This document shows, in pieces, positions 8,121 through 48,406 of a stretch of DNA of 64,000 bases; position 1 is the first letter of the stretch, and each line of letters starts with the position of its first letter. This DNA is from an uncultured Actinomycetota bacterium (GTDB taxonomy: Bacteria; Actinomycetota; Actinomycetes; Actinomycetales; CAWJMD01): NCBI GenBank assembly GCA_963825505.1, contig CAWGTL010000010.1, forward strand, positions 64,080 to 128,079, given 5' to 3'. The position numbers were made by a program, and so were the translations under genes. Below the pieces are notes generated by a model, which ran no database searches, had not been told where the DNA came from, and worked only from the letters and a program-made list of their open reading frames with translations.

Positions 8121-10857
<2,737 letters not shown>

Positions 10858-31007: not shown

Positions 31008-31090
31008 GACCCGACCCTCGCCGCGGACGGCGCGGGCGTCGTCCACAGGCGACGCACGCCCTGCTGTCCACAGGGCCTGACCACGGCTCG

Positions 31091-32419
31091 TCAGGCCGTG
31101 CGGCGGTGCCACGCGAGCATCGCGTGGTTGAGCTGGACGACCGGTTCGGTACTGCTGGTCGTCGATGGGTGGCCGAGGACCGGTGGTGGGTGTGAGCTGT
31201 AGGTGTGGCCGGTCGGGGTGGTGGTGGTGACGGTGCCGTCGGGATCTCGTTGCGCCGACCAGCCCGGTGCTTGTTTGGCGAGGTTGCAGCGGCGGCAGAG
31301 GCCTTGGGCGTTCTCGCGTGCGGTGGGGCCGTCGTCGGCGTAGTCCTCGACGTGGTCGGTCTCGGCGATCGGGGCGTCGCACCACGGGGTGCGGCAGGAC
31401 TGGTCGGAGAGCCGGACCAGGTGGGCCAGTCCGTCGGGGAAGCGGCGGGAGCGGGAGTCCATCGCGACCAGGGCGGTGCGGTCGGGGGTGGTGTAGAGCC
31501 GGCGGAGCCAGGCCCGCCCGGCCGCACCGGCGCGGGCGACCAGGGTGCGGGCGATCAGGCCGGGGATCGGGACGGGGACCTGGCCGCGGGCGTGGACCGT
31601 GGCCGAGGCGCCGCCGTGGCCGAGCAGGGTGGTGTCGGTCATCACCAGGTCGACGTGCACGGGCACGGGCTCGGTGAGCGGGTCGCGGCCGGTGACCCTG
31701 GCGACGAACGCGTCGGCCATCACCTGCCCGCGCGAGCGGGGGTCGCCGGTGGCGGCGGCCCGGGCGGCGTCCTGCCGCAGGGCGGCGAAGCACGCCACGC
31801 CCTCGGCCACCGGCACCAGCGCGCTGAGGTAGACCATCGTGTCCGGCGCCGGCCGGATCGTGACCGTGCGGTCGGCCTCTGCCTTCGCCGCCCGCTTCAC
31901 CGCCGACTCGGGGTCGAGCCTCTGGGCCAGGCCCTTGGCGGCGCGGGTGAGCCGGCCGGTGGAGGTGCCGGGCTGCTCGAGCATGTCGGCGAGCCGGGCA
32001 TCGACCTCGGTGCGGTCGTCGGCCTGCAGGACCGCGGTCTCACGGACCAGGCAGGTCGCGGTCCACTCGGTGATCCGGCCGCTGCTGAGGGCGGCCAGTG
32101 CAGTTCGGCATCTCGTGCACCAGCGCGGTGGCCATCCCGACGAGCTTGCCGCCCTGGTGCGGCGACTCCCCGCGCGCCAGCGCGACCTGCTCGACCACGC
32201 CACGGTGTGCCCGCTGGTTCGGTACCCCCGCCGCGACCTGCACGGCCCGCTGCGAGGCGACCAGGTCTGCGGTGATCCGCGCCTGGGTCGCCGACGCCGC
32301 CCGTTTCAGCTCCTCCAGCTCCCGGATCTGCTCGACCCGACCCGCGTCGTCACCGCCGGCTCGAGAGCGCGCACGTCCGCGACGATCTCGGCGAGCGCCG
32401 ACGGCAGGGTGTCGAACAC
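31091..32419 (-). pseudogene. DUF222/HNH endonuclease (REP13E12-like family), two frame disruptions
   Basis: N-terminus VFDTLPSALAEIVADVRALEP, then (shift ~32352) RVEQIRELEELKRAASATQARITADL...LVGMATALVHEMP. Then (shift ~32105) TALAALSSGRITEW...CRTPWCDAPIAETDHV...GLCRRCNLAK (HNH). Confidence 0.8.
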
Positions 32420-32479
32420 GTGTTCGATTCTACCTGAGCACGTCCCTGATGACAAGGGTCTTCAGTGACGAACGAGTCG

Positions 32480-33934
32480 CTAGAGCCGGTCCTGCCGCGG
32501 CATCAGGACCTCCTGCACGACCAGCAGGACGCCGGCGGCGATGGGGATCGCGATCAGGGCACCGAGCGCGCCGAGCAGGGTGCCGCCGACGAGGGCCGCC
32601 ACGAGCGCGACCGCGCCGGGCACCGAGACGGTGCGGGCCATGATCTTCGGTGCGATCAGGTAGTTCTCGACCTGCTGGTAGACGATGTAGTAGACGAGCA
32701 CGATCAGCGCCGTGGGCAGGCTGACGAACAGCGCGACCACCACGACCACGACCGCGCCGAGGGTCGCGCCGACGAGCGGGATCAGGCCGAAGACGCCGAC
32801 CACGATCGCGAGCACCGCGGGGTACGGGATGCCCAGGATCAGCATCATCACGTACGAGCAGAGGCCGTTCAGGGCCGCGATGGCGATCTGGCCGCCCACG
32901 TAGCCGCCGATGCGCTTGCTGATCTCGTCGCCGATCAGGGTGACCCGCTGGCGGCGAGTGGCCGGCACGAGGGCGTAACCGGTGCTGCGCAGGGTGCGCA
33001 TCGAGGCGAGGAAGTACAGGGTGAGGATCAGCACGGTCAGGGTGCTGAACACCCCGCCGAGGAGCGCCTGGCCGGCACCGAGCACGCCGCCGAAGAGGGC
33101 GGCGAACGTCTCGCCGTTGCCGAGGCGCTGCTGCACCTCCTGCGTGACCCGCCCGACGATGTCGTACCGGTTGTCGAGGTCGACGAACCACGGCGCCTTC
33201 TGCACGTCCTGGACGTACTGCGGCAGCTGGGTGGCGAGCTCGGTGCCCTGCTCGACGATGATCGGCGCGACCATGAAGCCGAAGCCGACGAAGACGCCGA
33301 TCGACGGCGAGGAACACGACAGCGATGGCCCAGCCACGGTGCAGCCCACGGCGATCGGAGCCACTCCACGACCGGCTCGAGGCCGAGGGCCAGGAACAGG
33401 GCGACGACGAGCAGGGTGATGACGTGCGAGATGCGGCCGAGCGCCTCGACCAGGCCGACCGCCACCAGCACGCCGATCGCGCCGACGAAGCCGACGTAGA
33501 AGGGGTGCGCGCGGTCGAAGTCGCGGCCCGGGTCGCCCGAACCGCCCGTGGCAGCGGAGGCGATGGTGGACGGAGGCGCGTCGGCGGCGGGGCGGTCCGA
33601 CGGGTCCTCGGCGGGACGGCGGCGGTGACGTCAGCTCCTGCGGCGGTGGCAGTGCGTCGCACGGGCGGCCGCCCGCTCGGCGAGCATCTGGTCGAGCGTG
33701 GGGAAGCCGGTGTGGCTGCGGCCCAGCTCGCGGCGCTGGGCCAGCGCGGCGCGCACCTCGCGGCGACCGTCGGCGGAGCCGAGCAGCGAGCGCAAGCGGC
33801 GGATCGCCCCCGGCCGCGCGGGGAACCGCGGTTCGCGCGGCGGGCGGGGTGCCCTCCTGGGCGAGTCCGTCGTGCTCCCCGAGGTGCTCGGAGGAGTCCT
33901 TCCCGGTGGACCCGCCGGTCCCGTCAGCCGTCAC
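32480..33934 (-). CDS. AI-2E (PerM/UPF0118) family transporter; ORF is open but internally out of frame, N-terminal boundary unresolved
   Basis: The C-terminal ~270 aa are clear AI-2E in the ORF frame. TM1-2 (FYVGFVGAIGVLVAVGLVEALGRISHVITLLVVALFLALGLEPVVEWL; RRGLHRGWAIAVVFLAV) lie in the other two frames (shifts ~33345, ~33300). A third shift lies near 33850, and the best-coded frame carries a TGA at 33631. Confidence 0.7.
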   Translation of the reverse strand: MTADGTGGSTGKDSSEHLGEHDGLAQEGTPPAARTAVPRAAGGDPPLALAARLRRRSPRGARRAGPAPRAGPQPHRLPHARPDARRAGGRPCDALPPPQELTSPPPSRRGPVGPPRRRRASVHHRLRCHGRFGRPGPRLRPRAPLLRRLRRRDRRAGGGRPGRGARPHLARHHPARRRPVPGPRPRAGRGVAPIAVGCTVAGPSLSCSSPSIGVFVGFGFMVAPIIVEQGTELATQLPQYVQDVQKAPWFVDLDNRYDIVGRVTQEVQQRLGNGETFAALFGGVLGAGQALLGGVFSTLTVLILTLYFLASMRTLRSTGYALVPATRRQRVTLIGDEISKRIGGYVGGQIAIAALNGLCSYVMMLILGIPYPAVLAIVVGVFGLIPLVGATLGAVVVVVVALFVSLPTALIVLVYYIVYQQVENYLIAPKIMARTVSVPGAVALVAALVGGTLLGALGALIAIPIAAGVLLVVQEVLMPRQDRL

Positions 33935-34041
33935 GCCACGTCCTTCCGCACGCCCGAGCAGGTCGCGGCGAGCCTAGCCGTGCGGCGACCGACGACGCCC
34001 GTCGGGACAGGCCGGGACGCGCGAGGTCCGTGACCGCGCGC

Positions 34042-35374
34042 TCAGACGTCGCGGAAGCGGTTGATCTGCGTCTCGAACCGCGCGCGGGTCTCGGTGTCGG
34101 TGATGCCGAGACCCTCCTGCGGCGACAGCGCCAGCACGCCGACCTTGCCCTGGTGCACGTTGCGGTGGACGTCGTGCGCGGCCTGCCCGACGTCGTCGAG
34201 GGAGTAGGTGCGCGAGAGCGTGGGGTGGACGATGCCGCGGGCGATCAGGTCGTTGGCCTCCCACGCCTCGCGGTAGTTGGCGAAGTGCGACCCGACGATC
34301 CGCTTCAGGCTCATCCAGAGGTAGCGGTTGTCGTACTCGTGCATGTACCCGGACGTGGAGGCGCAGGTGACGATCGTGCCGCCCTTGCGGGCTGCGTAGA
34401 CGCTGGCGCCGAACGTCTCCCGGCCCGGGTGCTCGAACACGACGTCGACGTCGTAGCCGCCGGTCAGCTCGCGCACGCGCTTGCCGAAGCGGCGCCACTC
34501 GGCCGGGTCCTGGGTGGTCTCGTCCTTCCAGAACCGGTAGTCCTCGGCGCGCCGGTCGATGATCAGGTCGGCGCCCATCCGGCGGCAGATCTCGGCCTTG
34601 TCCTCGCTGGAGACCACGCACACCGGCGTCGCGCCCGCGGCCAGCGCCATCTGCGTGGCGTACGAGCCGAGGCCGCCCGAGGCGCCCCAGATCAGCACGC
34701 GGTCACCGAGCTTGAGACCGGCGCCGTTGCGAGAGATCAGCTGCCGGTAGGCGGTGGAGTTCACCAGGCCGGGGGCGGCGGCCTCCTCCCAGCTGAGGTG
34801 GGCGGGCTTGGGCATCAGCTGGTTCGACTTCACCAGCGCGAGGTGGGCCAGGCCGCCGAAGTTGGTCTCGAAGCCCCAGATCCGCTGCTCGGGGTCGAGC
34901 ATCGTGTCGTTGTGGCCGTCCGGGTGCTCGAGCTCCACCGACAGGCAGTGCGCCACGACCTGGTCGCCGGGCTTCCACGTGTGCACGCCCACCCCGGTGC
35001 GCAGGACGACGCCGGCGAGGTCGGAGCCGACCACGTGGTACGGCAGGTCGTGGCGGGCGGCCAGGGGGGACGTGCGGCCGTACCGCTCGAGGAAGCCGAA
35101 GGTCGAGACCGGCTCGAAGATCGAGGTCCAGACGGTGTTGTAGTTGATCGCGCTGGCCATCACGGCGACCAGCGCCTCGCCCGGTCCGAGCTCGGGGGTG
35201 GCGACGTCCTCGAGGTGGAGCGAGCGCCGCGGGTCCTTGTCGCGGCTGTCGACGCCGTCGAACATGCGCGACCTCGTCCTTGTGCACCGTGACCGCGCGG
35301 TAGTGGTCCGGGATGTCGAGGTGGCCGACCTGGTCGAGCTCGCCGGCGAGGATCGCGTCGCGGATCTGGTCCAT
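34042..35374 (-). pseudogene. ccr: Crotonyl-CoA carboxylase/reductase, one extra base near 35268
   Basis: MDQIRDAILAGELDQVGHLDIPDHYRAVTVHKDEVA (ORF 34703..35464 frame) joins MFDGVDSRDKDPRRSLHLEDV...FETNFGGLAHLALV (ORF 34042..35265). Span length leaves remainder 1 on division by 3. Confidence 0.88.
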
Positions 35375-35396
35375 GCCGCCGGAGGTTACTGACGAG

Positions 35397-35867
35397 TCAG
35401 GTCCCGTGGGGTGCGGTGTGATCGACGCCACCGGCAGCGGGCTCCACCAGCTCCACCAGGACACCGCCGGCGTCCTTCGGGTGCACGAAGTTGACTCTGC
35501 TGCCTGCGGTCCCGCGTCGCGGGGCGTCGTAGAGCAGCCGCAGACCCCGCTCGCGCAGGGTCGCGGAGACCGCCTCGACGTCGGTGACGCGGTACGCCAC
35601 CTGCTGCACGCCCGGCCCGCTGCGGTCGAGGAACCTCGCGATCGTCGACTCCGGCGAGAGCGGCGCGAGCAGCTGCACGGCGGCGTCGCCCACGCCCATC
35701 ATCGCCTCGCGCACGCCCTGCTCCTCGTTCACCTCCTCGTGCAGCAGCGCCATCCCGTAGGTGTCGCGGTAGAACGCGATCGCGACGTCGAGGTCGGGGA
35801 CGGCCACGCCCACGTGGTCGATCTGGGTGAACAGCGGCTCGGCCGCGCCGGCGGGTGAGGTGGTCAT
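35397..35867 (-). CDS. Methylmalonyl-CoA epimerase (VOC family)
   Basis: ATG 35867. IDHVGVAVPDLDVAIAFYRDTYG...VNFVHPKDAGGVLVELVE. Located upstream of ccr on the same strand. Confidence 0.85.
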   Translation of the reverse strand: MTTSPAGAAEPLFTQIDHVGVAVPDLDVAIAFYRDTYGMALLHEEVNEEQGVREAMMGVGDAAVQLLAPLSPESTIARFLDRSGPGVQQVAYRVTDVEAVSATLRERGLRLLYDAPRRGTAGSRVNFVHPKDAGGVLVELVEPAAGGVDHTAPHGT

Positions 35868-36014
35868 GCCCGGCAGGGTAGGCGCGCGGCACACCCGGGC
35901 GCCGCGTGAGGTGGCTCACCGCGAGGTCGTCGCGGACGGGTCGTGGGTACGCTGCCGGGAGGCCGTCAGCCGCACCCGGACGGACGGCCCGTCGCGTCGC
36001 CGCAGGAGGAAACC

Positions 36015-37216
36015 GTGCCCAGCCGCTCGTCCGTCATCGTCGCCGGAGCCCGCACCCCGATGGGCCGGATGCTCGGCTCGCTCAAGGACTTCTCCGCCGC
36101 CGACCTCGGCGCGGTGGCCATCCGCGGGGCGCTCGAGAAGGCCGGCGTGGCGCCGGAGCAGGTCGAGTACGTGATCCTCGGCCAGGTGCTCCCCGCGGGC
36201 GCCGGGCAGGCCCCGTACCGGCAGGCCGCGGCCGCCGCGGGCATCCCGATGGACGTCCCGTCGCTCGGGGATCAACAAGGTCTGCCTGTCCGGCATCGAC
36301 GCCATCGCCCTGGCCGACCAGCTCATCCGCGCCGGGGAGTTCGACGTCGTGGTGGCGGGCGGCATGGAGTCGATGACGCAGGCGCCGCACCTGCTCGAGC
36401 GCTCGCGGTCCGGGTACAAGTACGGCGACGTCACGGTGCGCGACCACATGGCCCACGACGGCCTGTGGGACGCCTTCACCGACCAGGCGATGGGCGGGCT
36501 CACCGAGGCCGCCAACACCGGCTCGCAGGAGTTCACGCGCGAGGAGCAGGACGCGTTCGCCGCGCGCAGCCACCAGCTCGCCGCCCGCGCCTGGAAGGAC
36601 GGCCTGTTCGACGACGAGGTGGTCGCCGTCGAGATCCCGCAGCGCAAGGGCGATCCGGTCGTGTTCAAGGACGACGAGGGCGTGCGGGCCGACACCACCA
36701 CCGAGTCGCTGTCGCGGCTGCGTCCGGCGTTCCGCAAGGACGGCACCATCACCGCCGGGTCGGCGTCCCAGATCTCCGACGGCGCCTGCGCGGTCGTCGT
36801 GATGAGCCGGGAGAAGGCGGAGGAGCTCGGGCTGCTCGTGGATCGCGGAGATCGGCGCCCACGGCGTGGTCGCCGGTCCCGACTCCGCGCTGCAGAGCCA
36901 GCCGGCCCGTGCGATCGAGAAGGCCTGTGCCCGAGAGGGTATCGACCCCAAGGACCTCGACCTGGTCGAGATCAACGAGGCGTTCGCGGCCGTCGGCCTG
37001 GCGTCCACCAAGGAGCTCGGGCTCGACCCGGAGAGGGTCAACGTCAACGGCGGGGCCATCGCGATGGGGCACCCGATCGGCATGTCCGGCGCGCGGATCG
37101 TCCTGCACCTCGCCCTCGAGCTCGGGCGCCGCGGTGGCGGCACCGGCGTGGCGGCGCTGTGCGGCGGAGGCGGCCAGGGCGACGCGCTCATCGTCCGCGT
37201 CCCCGCCTCGGCCTGA
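36015..37216 (+). pseudogene. Acetyl-CoA C-acetyltransferase (thiolase), two extra bases (~36270, ~36836)
   Basis: GTG 36015 follows [21 protein letters not shown]...SLG | [14 protein letters not shown]...[10 protein letters not shown] | [10 protein letters not shown]...[20 protein letters not shown] across three frames. Span length leaves remainder 2 on division by 3. Confidence 0.9.
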
Positions 37217-37260
37217 GCAGCAGACGGGCCAGGCGGGCTGCGGCGCAACGGATCTCGCGC

Positions 37261-38243
37261 GTGGCTGACCGCCGGGCGCCTGGTCCTGACGTGGCCTCGC
37301 TGGTCGCGGAGGCCCGCGAGGGTTCGCCTCGTGCGGTCGCCCGGCTGATCTCGCTGGTCGAGGACGCCTCGCCGTTGCTGCGCGAGGTGATGGCCGCCCT
37401 CGCGCCGCACGCCGGGTTCGGCGTGGGTGGTCGGCGTCACCGGGGCGCCGGGCGTCGGCAAGTCGACGACCACGACCGCGCTCGTCACCGCCTGGCGCGC
37501 CAGGGACCTGCGGGTCGGCGTGCTCGCCGTCGATCCGACCTCACCGTTCTCGGGCGGCGCGCTGCTCGGCGACCGGGTGCGGATGGGCGAGCACGCCCTC
37601 GATCCCCACGTCTACATCCGCTCGATGGCCAGCCGCGGCCACCTCGGCGGCCTGAGCCGGGCCACGCCGCAGGCGCTGCGCGTGCTCGACGCCGCCGGGT
37701 GCGACGTCGTGCTGGTGGAGACGGTCGGCGTGGGCCAGAGCGAGGTCGAGGTCGCCGGCGCCGCCGACACCACGCTGGTGCTGCTGGCTCCCGGGATGGG
37801 CGACGGGATCCAGGCGGCCAAGGCCGGGATCCTCGAGGTGGCCGACGTCCTGGCCGTCAACAAGGCGGACCGCGACGGCGCCGACGCCACCGTCCGCGAC
37901 CTGCGCGGCACGGTCTCGCTGGCCGAGCGCCGGCAGGCCGGCGACTGGCGGCCACCGGTCGTCCGGCTGGTGGCGGCGCGGTCCGAGGGCGTGGACGACC
38001 TGGTGGAGGCGCTGGAGAAGCACCGGACGTGGGCGCGGGGCTCGGGCGAGCTCGAGCGCCGGCGCCGGGCCCGGGCCGCCGGCGAGATCGAGGAGATCGC
38101 GCTGGAGGCGCTGCGCGACGCGGATCGGCGACCTGCGCGGCGGCGGGGGAGCGAGCCTGGACGACCTCGCGAGCGAGGTGCTCGCCGGACGCACCGACCC
38201 CTACGCCGCCGCCGACCTGCTGCGCGAGCACCTCACGCGGTGA
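37261..38243 (+). pseudogene. meaB: Methylmalonyl-CoA-mutase-associated GTPase MeaB/ArgK, two extra bases (~37426, ~38121)
   Basis: [14 protein letters not shown]...APHAGFG | [16 protein letters not shown]...[10 protein letters not shown]...[10 protein letters not shown] | [39 protein letters not shown]. Span length leaves remainder 2 on division by 3. Confidence 0.88.
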
Positions 38244-38246
38244 GCG

Positions 38247-38663
38247 TCAGCCGCCGAAGGGGGCGCGCAGCGGGAGGTCGCGGCGGGTCTGGACCACCTG
38301 GGCGCCGCGGCCGGTGCCGGCGTTGACCACGACCGGGGCCATCTGGTTGACCGTGGTGTCCGCCAGGGTGTCGGCCGGGTTGAGCACCAGCAGCACCAGG
38401 GCGTCCTCGGGCGCGGTGATGCCGAGCTCGCCGGCCACGTCGTCGTCGACCTCGGCCTCGTAGCCGGGCGCGCACACCCACGGGGCGCCGAGCAGGAGCC
38501 GCACCGAGGTGTCCTCGAGGCTGCGCAGCGCGAACAGGCCACCCACCTCGTCGAGCCGGACGAGGGCGAAGCGGTGCAGGCCGTCCAGGCCGGGCAGCCC
38601 GGTCGGGAAGGTGAGCTCGGGCAGGTCGGTGCCCGTCTGCGGCGGCGCGGTCATCACGCTCAT
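38247..38663 (-). CDS. fliW: Flagellar assembly factor FliW
   Basis: 138-aa ORF reading [21 protein letters not shown]...LLVLNP...[11 protein letters not shown]. Last gene of the flgN-flgK-flgL unit. Confidence 0.85.
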
Positions 38664-38700
38664 CGTAGGTCGCCCCGGTGCCCGGAGAGGGAGGCGCGCG

Positions 38701-39589
38701 TCACCGCAGGAAGTCCATCAGCGTCGGCTGGATGACCTTGGCCGTGGCGGCGAGCGAGGCCTGGTAGGCCACCTGCTGGGTCTGCAGCTCGAGCACCGTC
38801 CTCGGCAGGTCGATCTCCTCCACCTGCGCGAGCCGGCCGGTGGCGGCGAGCGAGGCGTCCCTGACGCCCTGCGCCATCCGCTCGGTGCGGGCGTAGCGGG
38901 TGCCGAGTGTCGGCGACGGCGCCGGTGAACCGCGCGAACGCCGCGTCCAACGCGTCCAGCTCGGCGCCCAGCGCCTGGGGGTCGGAGACCACGCTCGCGG
39001 CGATCCGGTCCAGCACCGCCAGCACCGACGTCGTCGGGTCGCCGCCGAACACCGCGGCGCCGGCCGTGTCGACCCGCACGGTCGTCGTCGCGTCGAGCCG
39101 GCGGTTCACCGTCCCGCCGTCGCCGACGTAGGTGCCGTCCGGCGCGAACGCGACCTCGCCCGCGGTGGTCCCGCCGAACACGGGACGACCGAGGTAGCGT
39201 CGTGTTCGCCACGGCGAGGAGGTCCTCGCGCAGGCCGGCCTATCTCCACGGCGATCGCCTGACGCGACTCGGCGGAGGCCGAGCCCGTGCTGAGGCCCTG
39301 CAGGGTGAGATCGCGGGCACGGCGCAGCAGGTCGGTGCCGGAGCGCAGCGCGTCCTCGCCGGCGGTCAGCCAGGCCAGACCGTCCTCGGCGTTGCGCGCG
39401 TGCTGGGCCTGCGCCTTGAGGTCCGAGCGCAGCCCGAGGGCGGTGACCGTGCCGGCCGGGTCGTCGGACGCCTTGGCGATGGCGCGACCGCTGGTCATCC
39501 GGGCGTTCAGGTCGCTGACGGTCGGACATCCGCGACTGCAGGTTGCGCAGCGCGCTGTCGGCCATCATCCGGTGCGTGACGCGAGTCAT
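38701..39589 (-). pseudogene. flgL: Flagellar hook-associated protein 3 FlgL, four single-base insertions
   Basis: MTRVTHRMMADSALRNLQSRMS | VSDLNARMTSGRAIAKASDDPAG...AIAVEIG | LREDLLAVANTT | YLGRPVFGGTTAGEV...FTGAVAD | LGTRYARTERMAQGV...VIQPTLMDFLR*. Shifts lie near 39522, 39238, 39197 and 38909. Its ATG overlaps the flgK stop. Confidence 0.85.
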
Positions 39590-40978
39590 CGGCCCACCAC
39601 CCCCGTGCGGTTGATCAGGGTGTCCAGCGCCTGGTCGACGGCCGTCATCACGCGGGCCGCCCCCTCGTACGCGCGCTGGAACATCACCAGGTTGGTCATC
39701 TCCTCGTCCAGGTCGACCCCGGTGGCCGACAGCAGCGCGTCCTGCGCGCTCGCCGCCACCCTCGCGGCCACCGCGGCCCGGCCGTCGAGGGCGTTGACCT
39801 CGACGCCGGTGCGGACCACGAACCGGCCCCACAGCTCGTCCGGCCCGCCGGCCGCGGAGGCGAGTGCGGCGATCCGGTCGGCGAGCGAGCCGTCCTTGGC
39901 GCCGGCGCCGGCCTCGGCCGCCGCCAGCAGCATCGGGTTCGCCATCAGGTCCGGGTTCACCGCGATCGTCGCGGCCGAGGACCCGGTGCCGAGGACGAAG
40001 AACGCGCGCCCGGAGGAGCCGTCCGGCGCCTGGCCGGGGGTGTGCAGCGCGTTGAGCCGGGTGACCAGGGCGGTCGCGACCTCGTCGTAGCCGGCGGCGA
40101 CGCCGGGAAGCGTGGTCTGCAGGCCCTCGGTGAGCGCGCCGAGCACGCCTCCGCCGGAGACCGTGCTGCCGTCCGGCCAGGTGAAGCGCACGGGCGAGGA
40201 CGCGCTGACGTCCTGCATCTGCAGCGGCGCCTGCAGCGTGATCGCGGTGGCGCGGTCGCCGTCGACCAGCGGGATGCCGCCGACCAGGACGCGGGCGGTG
40301 CCGTCCGGCCGCAGCTGCGCGGTGGCGCCGGTGAGCTCGGACAGCCGCAGGACGAGCTGGTCGCGCTGGTCGGTGAGCTCGTGGGCCTGGCCGTCGGACT
40401 CGCGGATGTGCTTGTTCAGCTGGGCGATCGAGCCGGCCAGGGTGGTGACCTCGGTCTGCAGCGCGGTGGCCTGCGAGCGGGTCTCCTGCCACTGGCCCTG
40501 CACGCCCCGGCTGCCGGCGTGCAGCAGGTCGGCCACGTGGCTGGCCTGCTGGAGCACGGCGACGCGGGCGGCCGGGTCGGCGGGGGAGTTCGACAGGTCG
40601 CCGAACGCCTGCCACAGCTCGCCGAGCGCGGCCTGCAGGCCGTCGTCACCGGGCTCGGCGAAGCGGTTCTCCACCTGCGCGAGCAGGTCGGCGCGGGTGG
40701 TGAGGAAGCCGTGGTCGGCGGTGGACGAGCGCACCCGGGCGGCGGCGAGCTCGTCGGACAGCCGGACGACGCCCGCGACGGTGACGCCCGACCCGTAGGG
40801 GAGCGTCGCGCCCTGCAGCGAGTGCAGCGAGACCGGGCCGAGCGCCTGCAGGTCCGCGCGCTGGCGGGTGTAGCCGACGGTGCTGGCGTTGGAGACGTTC
40901 TGGCCCGGTCACGTCCATCGCCCGCCGCTGGGACAGCAGCGACGACAGCGCGATCGACAGGCCGCCGAAGCTGCTCAT
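39586..40978 (-). pseudogene. flgK: Flagellar hook-associated protein 1 FlgK, one extra base near 40904
   Basis: MSSFGGLSIALSSLLSQRRAMDVTG | QNVSNASTVGYTRQRADL... continues into ORF 39586..40734, which ends LDEEMTNLVMFQRAYEGAARVMTAVDQ. Confidence 0.88.
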
Positions 40979-41478
40979 CAGAGCGCCTCGTCGACGAGGT
41001 GGGCGCGGCCGGCGGTGGCGGCGGCCGGACGGCCGTGCGGGTCGTAGGTGGTGCCGGCGCCGGCGCGGGGGTCCTCGGTCAGGGTGCGCAGGGCCTCCTG
41101 GGTGGCGCGCTGGCCGGCGCTGAGGACGTCCCGGTTGGCCTGGGCCAGCTGGGAGATCTCCTGGGTCAGGGCGAGGAAGGCCTCGCGGTGGCCGTGCAGC
41201 AGCTCGCCCCACGGCTCGCCGGCGGCGTCGGCCAGCTCGCGCAGGCTCGGGCCGGGACGCAGGCCGAGCTCGGCCGCGGCGGCGTCGACCTCGGCGGCGC
41301 GCAGCACCTCGGCGCTGCGGATCTGCTCGAGCACCAGCTCGACCTCGCGGGTGGCGTGCGGCAGCCAGCGGGTGCGGCCGGCGGTGAGGAGCAGCTGCTC
41401 CTCCTCGAGCTTGAAGAGGAGCTGCTCCAGCAGCTCGCGTGCGTGCCACAGCACGGTGGAGACCTCGGGAAGGCCCAT
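40978..41478 (-). CDS. flgN: FlgN-family flagellar export chaperone
   Basis: 166-aa helical ORF (LWHARELLEQLLFKLEEEQLLL) directly upstream of flgK, overlapping it by 1 nt. Confidence 0.7.
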   Translation of the reverse strand: MGLPEVSTVLWHARELLEQLLFKLEEEQLLLTAGRTRWLPHATREVELVLEQIRSAEVLRAAEVDAAAAELGLRPGPSLRELADAAGEPWGELLHGHREAFLALTQEISQLAQANRDVLSAGQRATQEALRTLTEDPRAGAGTTYDPHGRPAAATAGRAHLVDEAL

Positions 41479-41492
41479 GGCGTCCTCTCGGC

Positions 41493-41513
41493 GAGGTCAC
41501 GGGGTGTGACCTC
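41493..41513 (-). promoter_or_regulatory. Perfect 8-bp inverted repeat in the flgN leader
   Basis: GAGGTCAC-N5-GTGACCTC lies between the predicted -10 element and the flgN ATG. It could be an RNA hairpin or an operator. Confidence 0.4.
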
Positions 41514-41522
41514 TTCCCCCTC

Positions 41523-41551
41523 CCATCGGCAGGGGAGTGGGCCACCTGAGG
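41523..41551 (-). promoter_or_regulatory. Sigma-28 (FliA)-type promoter for flgN-flgK-flgL-fliW
   Basis: Minus strand reads gtCCTCAGGTggcccactcccctGCCGATGGGagg, i.e. TCAG-N15-GCCGATGG. The -10 element ends ~45 nt upstream of the flgN ATG. Confidence 0.6.
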
Positions 41552-41648
41552 ACTTCTCACCGATCAAGGCGCTCCGGCGCGCGACGCCCCCGCGCGGGTT
41601 GCGGGTGAGCGCTCAAGGATCGGATCGATCGGGACGAAGGCTCTGGGC

Positions 41649-42569
41649 GTGACCACCACCAGCACCGGGCCCGTCGCCCGTGACGCCGCGCCGACCGCGC
41701 GCGAGCTGGACGACCTCGTCCGCACCCACCTGCCGGTCGTCGGCTACGTGGTGCACGAGGTCGCCGCCCGGCTCCCCGGGCACGTCGACCGCGACGAGCT
41801 GGTGTCGGCCGGTATGGCCGGCCTGGTCCGCGCGGCACAGGCGTTCGACGCCTCGACCGGCGTCCCCTTCTCGCGGTACGCCAACACCCGGATCCGCGGT
41901 GCGATCCTCGACGAGCTGCGCGGCATGGACTGGAGCAGCAGGGGCGCGCGCCGCCGCTCGCGCGAGCTCGTCGCAGGCGGAGGACTCCCTCACCTCGCGG
42001 CTCGGCCGCGCCGCCACGACGCGAGGAGCTCGCCGCCGAGCTCGAAGGTGGAGGTCGGCGAGCTCGACCGCCGCCGCGCCGAGCGCGAACGTGCCCTGCT
42101 GTCCCTGGACGCCTTCGACGGCGCCGTCGCCGACGTCCTGCCCGCCAGCGCGCCGGACCCCGAGCAGCACGCCCTGGCCGTGGAGCGGATGGGTTACCTG
42201 CGCGCGTCGGTCGACGCCCTGCCGGAGCGGCTGCGCGACGTCGTGGTCGGCGTCTTCCTCGAGCAGCGGCCGATGGCCGAGATCGCCGCCGAGCTCGGCG
42301 TCTCGGAGTCGCGGGTCAGCCAGCTGCGCGCCGAGGCCCTGGTGCTGCTGCGCGACGCGATGAACAGCCAGCTCGCCCCGGAGCGGCTGCCGGCCGCCGG
42401 CGCGCTCGGACCGACGGTCACCCGCCGGCGCGAGGCGCTGTACGCCCAGGTCGCCGCGAACGCCCTCGCCGCCGGCGTCGTCGCGCGCTCGCGCGCCTCC
42501 GACCCGGTGCGGGACCTGGTGCCGGCCCAGCGCCGTCCCGAGCACGACGCCGTCTCCTGGACGGCGTAG
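41649..42569 (+). CDS. fliA: Flagellar sigma factor FliA/WhiG (sigma-28); ORF is open but ~75 nt are read out of frame
   Basis: Region 2 (FSRYANTRIRGAILDELR) and region 4 (MAEIAAELGVSESRVSQLRAEAL) are present. Between 41973 and 42047 the sensible reading QAEDSLTSRLGRAATT / EELAAELE lies in the other two frames. Confidence 0.88.
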   Translation: MTTTSTGPVARDAAPTARELDDLVRTHLPVVGYVVHEVAARLPGHVDRDELVSAGMAGLVRAAQAFDASTGVPFSRYANTRIRGAILDELRGMDWSSRGARRRSRELVAGGGLPHLAARPRRHDARSSPPSSKVEVGELDRRRAERERALLSLDAFDGAVADVLPASAPDPEQHALAVERMGYLRASVDALPERLRDVVVGVFLEQRPMAEIAAELGVSESRVSQLRAEALVLLRDAMNSQLAPERLPAAGALGPTVTRRREALYAQVAANALAAGVVARSRASDPVRDLVPAQRRPEHDAVSWTA

Positions 42570-42590
42570 GAGAAAAGTTCAGAGGCTTTC

Positions 42591-42620
42591 CCTCAGGTCC
42601 GGATCGGCCGGGCCGATGGG
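42591..42620 (+). promoter_or_regulatory. Sigma-28-type promoter for fliC
   Basis: cCCTCAGGTccggatcggccggGCCGATGGGtc, i.e. TCAG (42593-42596), N15, GCCGATGG (42612-42619). Confidence 0.65.
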
Positions 42621-42628
42621 TCGGGTGC

Positions 42629-42644
42629 AGCCCACGGAAGGGCT
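42629..42644 (+). promoter_or_regulatory. fliC leader stem-loop presenting ACGGAA (ANGGAN hexaloop)
   Basis: AGCCC-ACGGAA-GGGCT begins ~10 nt after the -10 element. A second ACGGAGG (42659-42665) forms the Shine-Dalgarno region. Confidence 0.5.
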
Positions 42645-42671
42645 ACGACACAACTCTCACGGAGGAACACC

Positions 42672-43472
42672 ATGTCCATGCGCATCAACACCAACGTCGC
42701 GGCGATGAACGCCTACCGGAACCTGTCGGTCACCGAGGGCGCGATGTCCAAGTCCCTGGAGAAGCTCTCCAGCGGCCTGCGCATCAACCGCGCTGCCGAC
42801 GACGCCGCCGGCCTCGCCATCTCCGAGGGCCTGCGCTCCCAGGTCGGTGGCCTCAAGGTCGCCGTCCGCAACGCCCAGGACGGCATCTCCGTCGCCCAGA
42901 CGGCTGAGGGCGCGCTCACCGAGGTCCACTCGATCCTGCAGCGGGTCCGCGACCTGACGGTCCAGGGGCTCAACGGCTCCAACAGCGCCGAGTCGCTGGC
43001 CGCCATCGACGCCGAGATCGACGCCATGGCCGAGGAGATCGGCGCGATCGGGGCCCGCACCCAGTTCAACGGGGTCGACCTGTTCGGCGACACGCTGACC
43101 TTCCAGGTCGGCGCCAACAGCGGCGACACCCTCGACGTCGACCTGAGCGGCGTGGACCTGGCTGCGCTGCAGACCACCGTCGCCGCTCTCGCGGCCGGCA
43201 CCGCCGACCCGGGCGCCGTCGACACCGAGATCACCGCGATCTCCACCGCCCGCGCCGGCCTGGGTGCTTCGCAGAACCGGCTCGAGCACAACATCAACTC
43301 GCTCAACGTCGCGATCGAGAACCTGTCCGCGTCGGAGAGCCGGATCCGCGACACCGACATGGCCGCGGAGATGGTCAACTTCACCAAGAGCCAGATCCTG
43401 CAGCAGGCCGGCACCGCGATGCTGGCGCAGGCCAACCAGTCCTCGCAGGGCGTGCTCCAGCTCCTGCGCTGA
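42672..43472 (+). CDS. fliC: Flagellin
   Basis: 266-aa ORF reading MRINTNVAAMNAYRNL...GLRINRAADDAAGLAISE...QILQQAGTAMLAQANQSSQGVLQLLR. Confidence 0.95.
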   Translation: MSMRINTNVAAMNAYRNLSVTEGAMSKSLEKLSSGLRINRAADDAAGLAISEGLRSQVGGLKVAVRNAQDGISVAQTAEGALTEVHSILQRVRDLTVQGLNGSNSAESLAAIDAEIDAMAEEIGAIGARTQFNGVDLFGDTLTFQVGANSGDTLDVDLSGVDLAALQTTVAALAAGTADPGAVDTEITAISTARAGLGASQNRLEHNINSLNVAIENLSASESRIRDTDMAAEMVNFTKSQILQQAGTAMLAQANQSSQGVLQLLR

Positions 43473-43483
43473 CCGAGCACGGC

Positions 43484-43514
43484 GCCGGCCCCCGCCCCAC
43501 CAGCGGGGGCCGGC
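43484..43514 (+). terminator. Perfect 12-bp stem-loop after fliC
   Basis: GCCGGCCCCCGC-cccacca-GCGGGGGCCGGC lies 12 nt after the fliC stop. It could attenuate read-through into fliD. Confidence 0.6.
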
Positions 43515-43545
43515 TCCGTGACCCCCACCCCGAGGAGGTGACCCG

Positions 43546-44823
43546 ATGGCCGGGATGCAGGTCAGCGGACTGGTGAGCGGTCTGGACACCGCCACCATCG
43601 TCAACCAGCTGATGCAGCTGGAGGCGGCACCTCAGAACGCCCTCAAGGCCAAGGTCACCCGAGCCGGCAGCCAGGTGACGGCCTACCAGGCCGTCAACAC
43701 CCGGCTCACCGCCGCGCTCGCGGCCGCCGACAAGCTCACGAAGGACGTGACGTGGGGGGCGGCAACCGCCAGCTCCTCCGTCTCGTCCGTCACCGTGACG
43801 AGCGCTCCGGGCGCCGTCACCGGCAGCCTGCGGTTCTCGGTCGACCGGCTGGCCACCGCCCACATGGTGGCCAGCCCGACCGTGGCGGCCGGCGGCTCGG
43901 TCGTCGAGGACGGCCTGACCGAGCTCACCCTCCTCCAGGGCGGGGTGGCCACGACCGTGCCGCTCGAGGGCAACGACCCGGTCTCGGTCGCCAAGGCCAT
44001 CAACGCCTCCGGTGCCGAGGTCCGGGCCGTCGCGCTGCCGGTCGCCAACGGCGTCTACCGCCTCCAGGTCACCTCCCTCGCGACGGGCGAGGCCGGCGCG
44101 TTCTCCGTGCAGGGGCTCACCGTCGACGACGCGGTCACCGTCCAGGGTCAGGACGCCCGGATCCTCGTGGGTGGCACGCTCCCGGTGCAGTCGGCCGACG
44201 GCCGGTTCACCGACGTGCTGCCCGGCACCACCTTCACCGTGGGTGCGGTCGTCGCCGACGTCCAGCTCACGGTGCGCAAGGACGACCTCGCCGTCACCGC
44301 CTCGGTCAAGGCCGTGGTGGACGCCCTCAACGCCGCGCTCAAGGAGATCGGCACGGCGTCGCGGTCCGGCACCGGCGCGCTCTCGGGCGACAGCCTGCTC
44401 AGGTCGCTGACGCAGCAGCTGGTCTCGACCGTCTCCGGTGGCACGACCTCCGCGGTCGCGGCCGGGGTGCAGACCACGCGCACCGGTGAGGTCGCCTTCG
44501 ACACCGAGCGCTTCACCTCGCTCCTGGCGTCCGACCCGACCAGGGCCCGGACCCTGGTGGAGGGCATCGCCTCCCGTGTCGCCGAGGTCGCTCGCGCCGC
44601 GTCGTCCGCGAGCGACGGCACGGTGACCGTCGCCGCGCGGCGCCGCCAGGACAGCATCCGCGGCCTGAACGAGCAGGTGGCCGCCTGGGACACCCGGCTC
44701 GAGATGCGGCGGGCGACCCTGGAGCGGCAGTACTCGGCGCTGGAGACCGCACTGGGCTCCTTGCAGAGCCAGTCCAGCTGGCTCGCCGGACAGCTCGGCG
44801 GCCTGCCGAGCTGGAGCAGCTGA
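43546..44823 (+). CDS. fliD: Flagellar filament cap protein FliD
   Basis: 425-aa ORF. Begins MQVSGLVSGLDTATIVNQLMQLEAAPQ and ends LERQYSALETALGSLQSQSSWL. Confidence 0.9.
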   Translation: MAGMQVSGLVSGLDTATIVNQLMQLEAAPQNALKAKVTRAGSQVTAYQAVNTRLTAALAAADKLTKDVTWGAATASSSVSSVTVTSAPGAVTGSLRFSVDRLATAHMVASPTVAAGGSVVEDGLTELTLLQGGVATTVPLEGNDPVSVAKAINASGAEVRAVALPVANGVYRLQVTSLATGEAGAFSVQGLTVDDAVTVQGQDARILVGGTLPVQSADGRFTDVLPGTTFTVGAVVADVQLTVRKDDLAVTASVKAVVDALNAALKEIGTASRSGTGALSGDSLLRSLTQQLVSTVSGGTTSAVAAGVQTTRTGEVAFDTERFTSLLASDPTRARTLVEGIASRVAEVARAASSASDGTVTVAARRRQDSIRGLNEQVAAWDTRLEMRRATLERQYSALETALGSLQSQSSWLAGQLGGLPSWSS

Positions 44824-44833
44824 CCCGACCCGC

Positions 44834-44906
44834 AGACCGACCCACCGACCTGTAGACAGACCGACAGACCAGACCGACAGACCGACCAGACCGACAGACA
44901 GACCGA
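44834..44906. repeat. Array of the octamer AGACCGAC (6 copies, dense block 44858-44906) in the fliD-fliS spacer
   Basis: Read directly: ...gcAGACCGACcc...gacAGACCGACagaccAGACCGACAGACCGACcAGACCGACagacAGACCGAggaggagga. It ends at the fliS ribosome-binding site. Confidence 0.85.
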
Positions 44907-44920
44907 GGAGGAGGACACCC

Positions 44921-45343
44921 GTGCACGCACCGACCTACACCGCCGCAGCCCGGGCACGGTTCGTCGACGACGCCCTCGCCACGGCGAGCCCCGCCGTCCT
45001 GCTCACCCGGTTGTACGACCGGCTGGTGCTCGACCTGGTGCGCGCGGAGACGGCCCAGCGGGACGGTGCCCGCCTCGCTGCCAGCTCGCAGCTGCTGCAC
45101 GCCCAGGACATCGTCGCCGAGCTGCTCTCCAGCCTGGACACCGCCGCCTGGGCGGGCGGCCCCGGGTTGGCCGCGCTCTACGGGTTCCTGCTCACCGAGC
45201 TGGTCGGCGCGAACGTGACCTGCGACCCGGAGCGCACGGCCTCGTGCCGCGCGCTGGTCGAGCCCCTGCGCGACGCGTGGCACGAGGCGGCCCGCGGCGC
45301 CGTCACCGGCGGCTCGGTCGTCGGCGTCGGCCAGGCGCTCTGA
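44921..45343 (+). CDS. fliS: Flagellin-specific export chaperone FliS
   Basis: 140-aa ORF (LLTRLYDRLVLDL...AQDIVAELLSSLD...LYGFLLTEL) directly downstream of fliD. Confidence 0.8.
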   Translation: MHAPTYTAAARARFVDDALATASPAVLLTRLYDRLVLDLVRAETAQRDGARLAASSQLLHAQDIVAELLSSLDTAAWAGGPGLAALYGFLLTELVGANVTCDPERTASCRALVEPLRDAWHEAARGAVTGGSVVGVGQAL

Positions 45344-45348
45344 GCCCC

Positions 45349-45702
45349 GTGCCGACGACCGTCGCGCCCCCAGCGCCCTGGCAGCGCGAGTGGGAGCTCG
45401 CGCTGGAGTCGCTCGAGCTCGACGTCTCGGCCGCCGAGGACCTGCTCCGCGCGCTGCACGCGCAGACCGACCTGCCGGACGGCGCCGAGGTGATGCGGTC
45501 GCGCTGGACGCCGCCGCCCGGCACCCTCGGCCCGATCCCGCGGCCGCTCGTCGAGCGGGCCCGCACGTTGCTGCAGCGCCAGCACGAGGTGGCCGAGCGG
45601 CTCGTCGTCGCCGCACGGAGCAACCGGGCGCACGCGCGCGTGGCGAACCAGGTCGCCGAGACCGGGTCCAGCGCACCCGTCTACGTCGACGTCGCGCTCT
45701 GA
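45349..45702 (+). CDS. Hypothetical flagellar-locus protein (117 aa)
   Basis: GTG 45349 lies 6 nt after the fliS stop, in frame in ORF 45244..45702. Helical, no family recognised. Confidence 0.55.
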   Translation: MPTTVAPPAPWQREWELALESLELDVSAAEDLLRALHAQTDLPDGAEVMRSRWTPPPGTLGPIPRPLVERARTLLQRQHEVAERLVVAARSNRAHARVANQVAETGSSAPVYVDVAL

Positions 45703-45703
45703 G

Positions 45704-45737
45704 CGGACGGCCGCTGGACCCGGACGGCCGCTGACCC
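45704..45737. repeat. 17-bp tandem duplication CGGACGGCCGCTG(G)ACC x2
   Basis: Read directly after the stop of the 117-aa gene. Confidence 0.7.
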
Positions 45738-45924
45738 GGGTGGGAGCAGCGGCCGGTGCGGGTCGCACCCGGACCGGTGACGGCCGGCCCGGCGCCGACC
45801 GGGTCGTTCACCCGCGCAGCCCCACCGCCGTCGCCGGTGTGGACGTCGTCGCCGCGGTGGGAGGACCCTGGGGGTGCGGGAGGTCCCCTCGTCGGCAGCG
45901 GGACGCGCGGGCGGGAGGTGCGCG

Positions 45925-46835
45925 ATGACCTACTCGCTCGCCAACGCGCCCGCCCTCGCCTACGACCTGGTGCGTCTGCCCGCACGGAGCGCAGGTCCTC
46001 GCCGTGCTGCGCACCGCCCTGGCCTGCGGCAGCGAGGAGCTCGCCGCCCTGGCCGCCCGGCACCCCGGCCCGCACCGCGCCGGACGGTGGGCCGCGGTGC
46101 AGCAGGTGGGTGCCCGCGAGCCGGCCCGGCGCGCGGTCGCGTCCGCCGGCGCCGCGGCCGACCTCGCCCTGGCCGGCGACGTCGCCGGCAGCACCGCGCT
46201 CGTGCGCCGGCTCGAGCGGGCGACGCTCGGCGACGTCGCGGCCCTGGACCGGATGCTGCGCCACGACGTCCTGGACTGGACCTGGCTCGGCGACCGCCGC
46301 CCGGGCGGTCTGGCGGTCCAGGACCCCGAGGCGTCCGAGGCGTGCGACGTGCTGGCCGACGCCGCCGCGTCCGCGTACTGCTCCGAGCGGCTCGACCCGG
46401 CGACGCGGCGGTCGATGGCTGCGCCGTTCCGCGGCGGCGCTGCTCCCCCTGCCCGACCGCACCGGCCACCCCGGCGTCGACCACGCCGTGCGGGTGCTGC
46501 GCGGCCTGGACGCGGACGGTCGCGAACGCTGGCGGCGCGCGGTCGACCACCAGCGGGCCGCGACCACGGCCTGGGCCCCTGCCATGCACGAGGCCACCGG
46601 CGCCCTCGGCGTGGTCGACCGCCTGCACCTGGCGGCCGACGCCCAGCTCGCCGCCGCCGAGGCCTTCCTCGCGGCCGGCTTCAGCACCCAGGACGCCGCC
46701 TACGGCGTCTGGAACGCGGTGAGCGGGAGCATCCAGGCCGTGGTGTCCGGCGACCTGCTGCCCGCTGCCAGCGCGCACGTCCTGCTGCGGTGCTGGCGCC
46801 GCGTCCACGGCTCGGCGCCCGACGACCGGTCCTGA
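45925..46835 (+). pseudogene. Hypothetical flagellar-locus protein (~302 aa), two extra bases (~45990, ~46435)
   Basis: MTYSLANAPALAYDLVRLPARS | QVLAVLRTALACGSEELAAL...MAAPFR | ALLPLPDRTGHPGVDHAVRVL...CWRRVHGSAPDDRS* across three frames, each with high GC3. Span length leaves remainder 2 on division by 3. Confidence 0.5.
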
Positions 46836-46869
46836 CCCGAGCCGGTGGTGAGCACCACCCGACCGGCGT

Positions 46870-46899
46870 CCTCAGGTTCGACCCCGAACGGCCGATGGG
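46870..46899 (+). promoter_or_regulatory. Sigma-28-type promoter upstream of the small ORF / EAL-HDOD unit
   Basis: tCCTCAGGTtcgaccccgaacgGCCGATGGGac, i.e. TCAG 46872-46875, N15, GCCGATGG 46891-46898. Confidence 0.6.
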
Positions 46900-46943
46900 A
46901 CTGGTGCGGGGCGCGTTCCGGCAGGTCCGGCACCGCCACGCGG

Positions 46944-46963
46944 GCGTCGCACGGATGCGGCGC
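46944..46963 (+). promoter_or_regulatory. Leader stem-loop with ACGGAT hexaloop
   Basis: GCGTCGC-ACGGAT-GCGGCGC (7 bp, one G-U pair). A second ACGGACGAGGGG (46973-46984) overlaps the SD of the small ORF. Confidence 0.45.
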
Positions 46964-46988
46964 ACCACCATCACGGACGAGGGGCACC

Positions 46989-47105
46989 ATGCACATCCCG
47001 ATCGCGGGCGAGCGCCGCGGCACCGCCGAGCGCCGGGGCACGGCCGAGAGGTCCCGTGGGCGCCGGGGTACCGTCGAGTCCTCGACACCCGGGGGGACCA
47101 CGTGA
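46989..47105 (+). CDS. Candidate 38-aa Arg/Gly-rich leader peptide, translationally coupled to the EAL-HDOD gene
   Basis: ATG 46989 follows GAGGGG. MHIPIAGERRGTAERRGTAERSRGRRGTVESSTPGGTT. Very high GC3. Its TGA (47103-47105) overlaps GTG 47102 of the next gene (GTGA). Contains an 18-bp tandem repeat (47010-47045). Confidence 0.4.
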   Translation: MHIPIAGERRGTAERRGTAERSRGRRGTVESSTPGGTT

Positions 47106-48406
47106 GCAGCGTCTGGAAGCTGTTGGAGCAGGTGCCCGAGGTGGCGCCCGCCACCCGCATCGCCCGGCAGGGGATCTACGACCGCGACGGCCGGCTCGTC
47201 GCCGGCGAGCTGCTCTTCCGCGGCCACCACGCCGACCAGGCCGGACTCCCCTCCACCTGGGACGCCGTGCACGACGACTCGCTGGCGGCGATCGCCGCCG
47301 AGGCGGCGGCCGACCAGGCCACCTCTCACGTCATCGTCACCACGTTCGGCGACTTCGGCGTCGAGCGGCTCGGTGGCGGACGACCGCTGTTCATCAACGT
47401 GACCCGCTCGTTCCTCGCCGGGGACTACCCGCTGCCGTTCGGGCCCGAGGGCGTCGTGCTCGAGATCCTGGAGAACGTCCAGGTCGACCAGGAGGTGCTG
47501 GACGGCGTCGCGGCGCTGCGCGAGCGCGGCTTCCGGTTCGCGCTCGACGACTACGTCGGCGAGGAGCACCGCGCCCCGCTCGTCGACCTCGTCGACGTCG
47601 TCAAGGTCGACGTCCTCGCCCCGGGCATCGACACCGCGGCGGTGGCCGCCGCCGTCCGGGCCCGCCGGCCCGGCGTCCAGCTGCTGGCCGAGCGGGTCGA
47701 GTCGGCCGAGGTGCTGCGCGCCTGCCACGACGCCGGGTACGAGCTGTTCCAGGGCTTCCACCTCTCGCACCCCGACGTGATGGAGTCGGCCAGCATCTCG
47801 CCGTCCCAGGTGATCTGCATGCGCCTGCTGCAGGCGCTCGGCGACCCGGCGTCGGACGCCGACGACCTCGAGGGGATCGTCGCGGCCGACCCGGGCCTGG
47901 CGGTGCGGGTGCTGCGCACCGCCAACTCGGCCAGCACCGGGAGCCGTCGCGAGATCTCCTCGCTGCGCCAGGCCGTGGTGCTGCTGGGGCCGCGCCCCCT
48001 GCGGTCGTGGGTGCTGCTCACGCTCCTCGGCGGGATGGCCGCCGGACGCCTCGACGACCTGGTGACGGTGCTCGCGCGGGCGGAGGCCTGCGAGGCCGTG
48101 GCCGCCGCCACCGGGGTCGACCCCGCCGCGGCGTACACCACCGGCCTGCTGTCGGGCGTGGCGCAGGTGCTGCGCACCCCGGGCGCCGAGGTCGCGCGCG
48201 ACGCCGGCGTCAGCGACGACGTGCGCCGGGCGCTCGCCGAGGGGGAGGGCCCGCTCGGCGAGGTGCTCCGGGTGGTGCGGGCCCACGAGCTCGGTCTCCC
48301 GGACGCGGCGCAAGGAAGCAGCCTGTCGCCCCTGGTGCTGTCGAGCCTGTGCCTCGAGGCCTGGGCCACCGCGCAGGCCACCGTCACGGCGATGGCCAGG
48401 GGGTAG
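47102..48406 (+). CDS. EAL-domain plus HDOD-domain signalling protein (c-di-GMP related)
   Basis: GTG 47102 is in frame in ORF 46004..48406. EAL-like core (GELLFR, VVLEILENV, RFALDDYV, VKVD, AERVE, ELFQGF) followed by HDOD-like LQALGDPASDADDLEGIVAADPGLAVRVLRTANSA. Confidence 0.8.
   Translation: MSSVWKLLEQVPEVAPATRIARQGIYDRDGRLVAGELLFRGHHADQAGLPSTWDAVHDDSLAAIAAEAAADQATSHVIVTTFGDFGVERLGGGRPLFINVTRSFLAGDYPLPFGPEGVVLEILENVQVDQEVLDGVAALRERGFRFALDDYVGEEHRAPLVDLVDVVKVDVLAPGIDTAAVAAAVRARRPGVQLLAERVESAEVLRACHDAGYELFQGFHLSHPDVMESASISPSQVICMRLLQALGDPASDADDLEGIVAADPGLAVRVLRTANSASTGSRREISSLRQAVVLLGPRPLRSWVLLTLLGGMAAGRLDDLVTVLARAEACEAVAAATGVDPAAAYTTGLLSGVAQVLRTPGAEVARDAGVSDDVRRALAEGEGPLGEVLRVVRAHELGLPDAAQGSSLSPLVLSSLCLEAWATAQATVTAMARG

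Follow-up and report, generated by a model that had tools for sequence, protein, structure and literature searches.

Indel errors of long-read (Nanopore/PacBio) sequencing are known to corrupt protein prediction, and they are usually detected by tests of protein length such as IDEEL (PMC9262707). Indels have been documented in nanopore-only assemblies at modest coverage (PMC9262707; for MAG pipelines built on Flye and Medaka, PMC12313526), and the Microflora Danica ('MFD') MAG pipeline consists of Flye and one round of Medaka on nanopore reads (PMC12313526). In such artifacts, called genes are frameshifted by single-base consensus errors, which become more severe at low coverage and in microdiverse populations and are distributed patchily within MAGs. 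Real compensated frameshifts leave a short out-of-frame segment between in-frame flanks, an open ORF and an ancestral sequence that the other frames still reveal; they are shared by a clade or reproducible, have intact neighbors and usually consist of a +1 shift paired with a −1 shift. The fliA gene described here has the same segment, flanks, open ORF and recoverable ancestral sequence, but it is a singleton, is surrounded by about 30 similar uncompensated lesions and combines three events of the same sign. The lesions of this stretch also differ from the usual long-read indel errors, since they are insertion-only, lie mostly outside homopolymers and fall on strain SNPs with both alleles present, while those in fliA sum to +3, such that the ORF (306 versus 305 aa) would not be caught by a pseudogene filter or by a comparison of length ratios.

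The window, that is, the whole stretch of 64,000 nucleotides that was analyzed, carries a fliA/whiG-type sigma-28 gene at positions 41649–42569 of the plus strand (GTG start, stop codon included), which was identified from the ORF list, Pfam and NCBIfam and encodes 306 amino acids as written. Upstream of it, the minus strand carries fliW, flgL, flgK and flgN, with flgN directly adjoining, and the flagellin gene (fliC), fliD and fliS are located downstream. Sigma-28 is a late flagellar sigma factor and not a master regulator, and the label of 'master' flagellar sigma factor in the first-pass annotation is corrected here. The flagellar cluster is that of a Kineosporiaceae-like actinobacterium; among named relatives, the protein is closest to one from Angustibacter speluncae, which is found in its 75%-identity cluster. 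A 310-aa ORF antisense to fliA (41613–42545, minus strand) is Arg/Gly-rich and represents a typical high-GC shadow ORF, not a gene.

As written, FliA contains sigma region 2 (PF04542, Sigma70_r2, 44.9 bits, residues 23–95) and region 4 (PF04545, Sigma70_r4, 45.9 bits, residues 189–235) according to Pfam, whereas region 3 (PF04539, Sigma70_r3) was not detected at E ≤ 0.1. When three extra bases were removed from the gene, PF04539 was found with 32.1 bits (cutoff 25.3) at residues 105–171; region 3 is thus missing because of these three bases, while the gene itself is sound. The top NCBIfam match of the as-written protein was TIGR02479 (FliA_WhiG) with 136.8 bits, and the repaired protein reached 172.4 bits, a gain of 36 bits that places it beside the intact orthologs P0002, P0128 and P0005 (168–172 bits). 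The curated cutoff of TIGR02479 is 189.6 bits, and the entire clade, including its intact members, scores just below it, although TIGR02479 is still the best family for all of them. Compared with the FliA/WhiG sigma-28 family (TIGR02479; structures 6pfv for WhiG, 1rp3 and 6pmi for FliA), the window gene therefore has intact regions 2 and 4 and, when read in three frames, an intact region 3 with a score equal to that of the orthologs (172 bits), while the as-written protein departs from the family in carrying unrelated sequence for the first region-3 helices. Almost certainly, the true gene is a colinear 305-aa FliA/WhiG sigma-28 gene with an intact region 3, and the sigma-28 of the organism is an ordinary one.

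The window was compared with closely related contigs and with a cleaner relative. L001, an independent contig (ENA ERZ25039516, contig_68660, 8,717 bp), covers window positions 38755–47483 and carries P0002. L077 (ENA ERZ25039476, contig_7550) is 96% identical over 31769–52583, and L078 (contig_3045 of the same sample as L077) is 100% identical over 18055–19526 and ∼99.9% identical over 21–29.4 kb. L075 (GCA_016850845.1) is the cleaner relative and served as the source of intact proteins for tblastn.

The scrambled stretch of fliA spans positions 41973–42047 of the plus strand, where 25 as-written codons (AGGGLPHLAARPRRHDARSSPPSSK) stand in place of 24 ancestral region-3 codons. Frame 0 reads ...RELVAGGGLPHLAARPRRHDARSSPPSSKVEVGELD... 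as written and resumes at 42048 with VEVGELDRRRAERERALLSLD. The first extra base, a G at 41973, shifts the reading from frame 0 to frame 1, and the following piece in frame +1 (41974–42021, plus strand) encodes QAEDSLTSRLGRAATT where orthologs have RAEDSLTSRLGRAATT or QAEDQLTSRLGRAATT. The second is one surplus base in the GCG at 42021–42023, which shifts the reading from frame 1 to frame 2 and corresponds to 42023 (G) relative to L001 or, equivalently, to 42021 relative to the other relatives. The piece in frame +2 (42023–42046) encodes EELAAELE, for which the orthologs have (E/Q)ELAAEL(E/R/K). The third extra base is one of the two A at 42045–42046 (L001: CTCGA-GGTGG) and brings the reading back to frame 0; all lie on the plus strand. 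In a four-way DNA alignment of the window, L001, L077 and L075, the three bases are present in the window only. The first-pass annotation had placed them at about 41973, 42022 and 42047, whereas L001 places them at 41973, 42023 and 42046, a discrepancy of 1–2 nt at most, and its translations in the three frames (QAEDSLTSRLGRAATT from 41974, EELAAELE from 42023, frame 0 again at 42048) were reproduced exactly.

Deletion of the three bases yields a protein of 305 aa, the same length as P0002, whose segment reads RELVRAEDSLTSRLGRAATTQELAAELEVEVGELD. The as-written segment, described earlier as not sigma-like, shares 1 identical residue among the 24 compared with P0002 and has no Sigma70_r3 match, while the joined reading RELV-QAEDSLTSRLGRAATT-EELAAELE-VEVGELD, proposed as sigma-28-like, is identical to P0002 at 22 of 24 positions and regains region 3. 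The segment is, however, not a region-3 linker, as had been supposed, but forms the helices at the N-terminal end of region 3 (Pfam region 3 at residues 105–171; alignment to 6pfv), and it is colinear with approximately residues 133–157 of the WhiG structure 6pfv. The alignment to orthologs suggested in the first-pass annotation was carried out, and the ∼15 close homologs are all colinear across the segment with the three-frame reading and not with the single-frame translation. Codon usage differs accordingly between the frames: A/T-ending codons make up 5 of the 25 codons in the as-written segment versus 3.2% of the remaining fliA codons (P = 0.001), and only one of 24 in the three-frame reading, namely the GAA that holds the surplus A. 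As expected from that annotation, a net-zero triple of +1 shifts is hidden from ORF calling, since the exact 306-aa protein has already been called in an NCBI/ENA-derived collection. This entry (P0001, on a contig of 230,488 bp) is the sole member of its 90% cluster and is recorded as an ordinary called protein without a region-3 domain. Among the JGI metagenome contigs, both the as-written 39-mer and a degenerate colinear 37-mer gave no matches, and this search has no bearing either way.

Four GAGCTC palindromes occur within 41964–42060 (window average 1.1 per kb), and every fliA insertion lies ≤9 nt from one of them. A methylation of this motif was considered as a cause and dropped, since the other nine insertions relative to L001 are 59–816 nt away from any GAGCTC and no motif is common to the twelve contexts; the proximity probably arises by chance from Glu-Leu codons.

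Over the 8.7 kb shared with L001, the window is 99.44% identical, with 37 substitutions and 12 indels between the two. Each of these indels is one extra base in the window (38906, 39196, 39241, 39525, 40903, 41973, 42023, 42046, 42572, 45978, 46432, and 46853), no deletions were found, and the majority of the insertions are not homopolymer extensions. L077 sides with the window at three of these sites (39196, 42572, and 46853). Among the 35 coding substitutions, 22 fall on codon position 3, and 21 are synonymous while 14 are not. As judged from these sequences, the substitutions appear biological and the indels do not. The fliA gene alone holds 14 of the 37 substitutions, which corresponds to 1.5% versus ∼0.3% elsewhere. 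Five of the substitutions in fliA are non-synonymous, most of the substitutions are located in the C-terminal tail past region 4, and divergence between strains peaks locally in this gene. In a test for switching between L001-like and L077-like haplotypes within the window, 25 of the 37 substitutions matched L077, and most of these also L075; they are likely to be changes specific to L001 and hence uninformative on haplotype switching.

Two further observations concern variation between strains. At 19527–20509, the window differs from L078 by ∼35 substitutions in 1 kb within a region that is otherwise 99.9–100% identical, which resembles a small inter-strain recombined segment. At 47023–47038 and 45703–45729, blocks of 7–16 nt that are apparently intergenic are missing from L077 and are likely real indel polymorphisms.

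The extra bases are not confined to fliA but characterize an error-rich assembly patch of ∼16 kb (∼30900–46900) that includes this gene and contains ∼2 errors per kb versus 0–0.2 per kb in the flanks. Compared with L077, 30 single bases are found only in the window between 31.8 and 46.9 kb and none between 47 and 52.6 kb, and compared with L078, only two such bases (25910 and 29646) were observed between 18.0 and 30.8 kb, with divergence and indels climbing from ∼30.6 kb. The extra base at 25910 coincides with a frame switch of the hidden Markov model (HMM) described below, where an alcohol-dehydrogenase-like gene ends. The sibling assemblies break within the patch: contig_3045 stops at window position 34077, and contig_68660 extends only over 38755–47483.

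Alignment of the L075 proteins to the window by tblastn revealed hops from frame n to n+1 in the genes of an AI-2E transporter (two), an alcohol dehydrogenase, a thiolase (two) and MeaB (two) as well as in flgL and flgK, and two further hops in a gene whose orthologs have 298 aa (L075) and 302 aa (L001). The affected genes include housekeeping ones. The thiolase and MeaB genes (35990–38248, plus strand) each contain two uncompensated +1 shifts (∼36268, 36834, 37418, and 38119), which were seen as tblastn frame changes 3>1>2 and 1>2>3 and by a frame HMM. The flgK gene (39586–40978, minus strand) carries an uncompensated extra base at 40903, where tblastn hops from frame −1 to −2 at ∼40904. The frame HMM, which is a codon-position HMM and counts frame switches that have no stop codon at the junction, detected 12 such switches in the window; nearly all of these are +1, and 10 of the 12 lie between 33.3 and 46.4 kb. 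The controls L001, L075 and L076 and isolate genomes showed 0–1 switch per 20 kb. A switch called at 3860 is false, as a real stop codon at 4021 accounts for it. Outside the patch, a gene for a LysR-type regulator (58657–59623, minus strand) has a +1 frameshift at ∼59400 that separates the HTH (ORF 58973–59623) from the substrate-binding domain (ORF 58657–59460). From sequence comparison, a genome with breaks in all of the patch genes listed above but 99.4% identity to an intact sibling would not be credible.

Many of the insertions coincide with sites at which the relatives differ from each other. At site 2 of fliA, L001 reads GAC-GC-AGG, L077 and L075 read GAC-CG-AGG, and the window has GACGCGAGG, in which both alleles are merged (42021–42023: GC and CG in the relatives, GCG in the window). 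At 40903, L001 has CTG-C-CCGG, L077 and L075 have CTG-G-CCGG, and the window contains both alleles (CTGGCCCGG). The alleles at 36834 are C and G, with GC in the window, and those at 46432 are CG and GC, with CGC in the window. A strict test identified such unions of both alleles at six or seven sites (33303, 36834, 38906, 40903, 42023, and 46432), thus including the second fliA site, and three more are apparent by eye only (38119, 39525, and 45978). With the relatives at hand, only about half of the insertions could be demonstrated as both-allele merges. At site 1 of fliA, the strict test gave no exact match, but a Val-Gln allele (GTC CAG) and an Ala-Gln allele (GCG CAG) may have been combined into CTCGTCGCAGG. 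At site 3, the codon of the relatives specifies E (P0002), K (P0126), or R (the others), and CTCGAAGG may represent GAG and AAG merged, as suggested by these protein variants. Statistically, of the 12 sites at which the window and L001 differ by an indel, 8 are no more than 1 nt away from a difference between L001 and L077, compared with a background of 9.3% (P = 2e-6); without the three sites at which L077 equals the window, this holds for 5 of 9 (roughly P = 6e-4, own binomial estimate). Under a uniform rate of insertion, the probability of finding at least three within 75 nt is 0.04–0.08, and the three of fliA span 73 nt, which represents a mild excess. Since a uniform rate underpredicts it, this cluster requires errors that track the local density of SNPs.

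It is established that the extra bases exist in the window, that the three-frame reading of fliA is the ancestral one and that the lesions are patch-wide, insertion-only and located at polymorphic sites. Judging by these patterns in the assembled sequences, the three extra bases are very probably assembly consensus errors that are absent from the genome of the organism. The ∼16-kb stretch (∼30.9–46.9 kb) would have been built from long reads whose support was poor or mixed, most likely reads from at least two closely related strains; L001, L077 and many of the related MAG loci bear Flye-style contig names. At substitutions between these strains, both alleles may have been retained in tandem in the consensus, by which a SNP would become a 1-nt insertion; fliA varies most between strains of all genes in the stretch and would have acquired three of these insertions in 73 nt. 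The merging of alleles at strain SNPs would account at once for the insertion-only bias, the non-homopolymer contexts, the confinement to a microdiverse stretch and the cluster in fliA. Three +1 insertions always add up to a whole codon, so the ORF remains open and is called as an intact protein of 306 aa; that the shifts in fliA sum to net zero is a matter of chance. The first-pass annotation had left the choice between a marker of local assembly error and a real scrambled sigma factor. The former option is favored by ∼30 window-only insertions in ∼16 kb, by the broken neighboring genes and by near-identical assemblies without these bases, while a singleton allele with the same type of lesion in the neighboring genes and colinear relatives speaks against the latter.

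If taken at face value, the sequence would describe a genuine compensated allele, in which three real +1 insertions replaced the first region-3 helices by a Gly/Pro/Arg-rich segment of 25 residues, and sigma-28 would be hypomorphic or inactive. This agrees with a sequence that is deposited as such, with an open ORF and a called protein, and with insertions that are somewhat more clustered than uniform noise; moreover, wrong frames rarely hold stop codons at high GC, so that intermediates would not have been truncated early. However, alleles that had gained only one or two of the insertions would lack region 4, so that selection could not favor them, and the 90% cluster has one member only, with all other relatives being colinear. 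At least nine neighboring genes bear the same type of lesion in uncompensated form (∼30 in the patch), and insertions only, mostly outside homopolymers and at SNP sites, do not correspond to a known mutational spectrum. The substitutions in fliA show purifying selection, and codon usage tracks the ancestral frames. We consider a genuine allele highly unlikely, and even less is to be said for real insertions whose unrelated 25-mer, reached via three same-sign shifts at polymorphic codons, is tolerated by, or inactivates, a natural FliA/WhiG sigma-28.

The damage to the neighboring genes could in turn reflect a real decay of the locus, with the flagellar region and its surroundings pseudogenizing in this strain and fliA being one of many affected genes. 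Bacteria often lose motility genes, and flgK, flgL and fliA are among the many frameshifted genes between 31 and 47 kb, but the thiolase, MeaB, alcohol dehydrogenase and transporter genes are damaged equally. Stop-codon substitutions and larger deletions were not found in the locus, the ratio of insertions to deletions versus L001 is 12 to 0, and the identity to an intact sibling is 99.4% with mostly synonymous substitutions. Decay also leaves the hits in housekeeping genes and the signature of purifying selection unexplained. As the both-allele signature has no biological mechanism and related assemblies, some apparently from the same project, are equivalently damaged at other positions, there is very little probability that the locus is decaying. 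Practically negligible, finally, is a recoding of the gene by three programmed +1 ribosomal frameshifts or by transcriptional slippage. It would restore the ancestral protein, in line with a three-frame reading that is a perfect sigma-28, yet the orthologs, one of them 99.4% identical, encode the segment colinearly and the shifts are thus not conserved. Neither a motif nor a slippery run is common to the three sites, the same lesions occur in the neighboring genes, and we know of no precedent for three programmed +1 shifts that follow one another within 75 nt.

With consensus error as the preferred reading, the scramble in fliA has no biological significance and is of modest value as an example of data quality. 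Net-zero consensus insertions slip past gene callers as well as past pseudogene filters and checks of length ratio such as IDEEL. The scrambled 306-aa protein already sits in an NCBI/ENA-derived collection, where it appears as a sigma factor lacking region 3. The tandem-allele signature at strain SNPs is a simple diagnostic that does not require reads, and it could be used to flag microdiverse patches of long-read MAGs.

Similar damage was observed in related assemblies. The fliA gene of L077 (P0007, L077 positions 10001–10819) contains a compensated scramble of its own at window positions ∼42044–42138, where a −1 shift near site 3 is followed by a +1 shift ∼90 nt later and the protein reads ...AAELRWRSASSTAAAPSASGPCCPWTPSTAPSPTSLPA... 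as a result. Many other genes of L077 are fragmented, including those for AI-2E, ADH, thiolase and MeaB as well as fliW, flgL, fliD and fliF. In P0125 (481 aa, NCBI/ENA, on a contig of 455,819 bp), which derives from another related MAG, fliA is fused via frameshifts to the downstream flagellin, whose part is out of frame near the end; this is another database protein produced by indel errors. Around fliA, the number of no-stop switches per 20 kb amounted to 9 in L020 (MFD02159.bin.2.55), 10 in L038 (MFD01213.bin.2.165) and 2 in L033 (MFD01275.bin.c.21), most of them +1, while the other MAG loci of the MFD series and the isolate genomes showed 0–1 switch, indicating that the noise is patchy across the collection.
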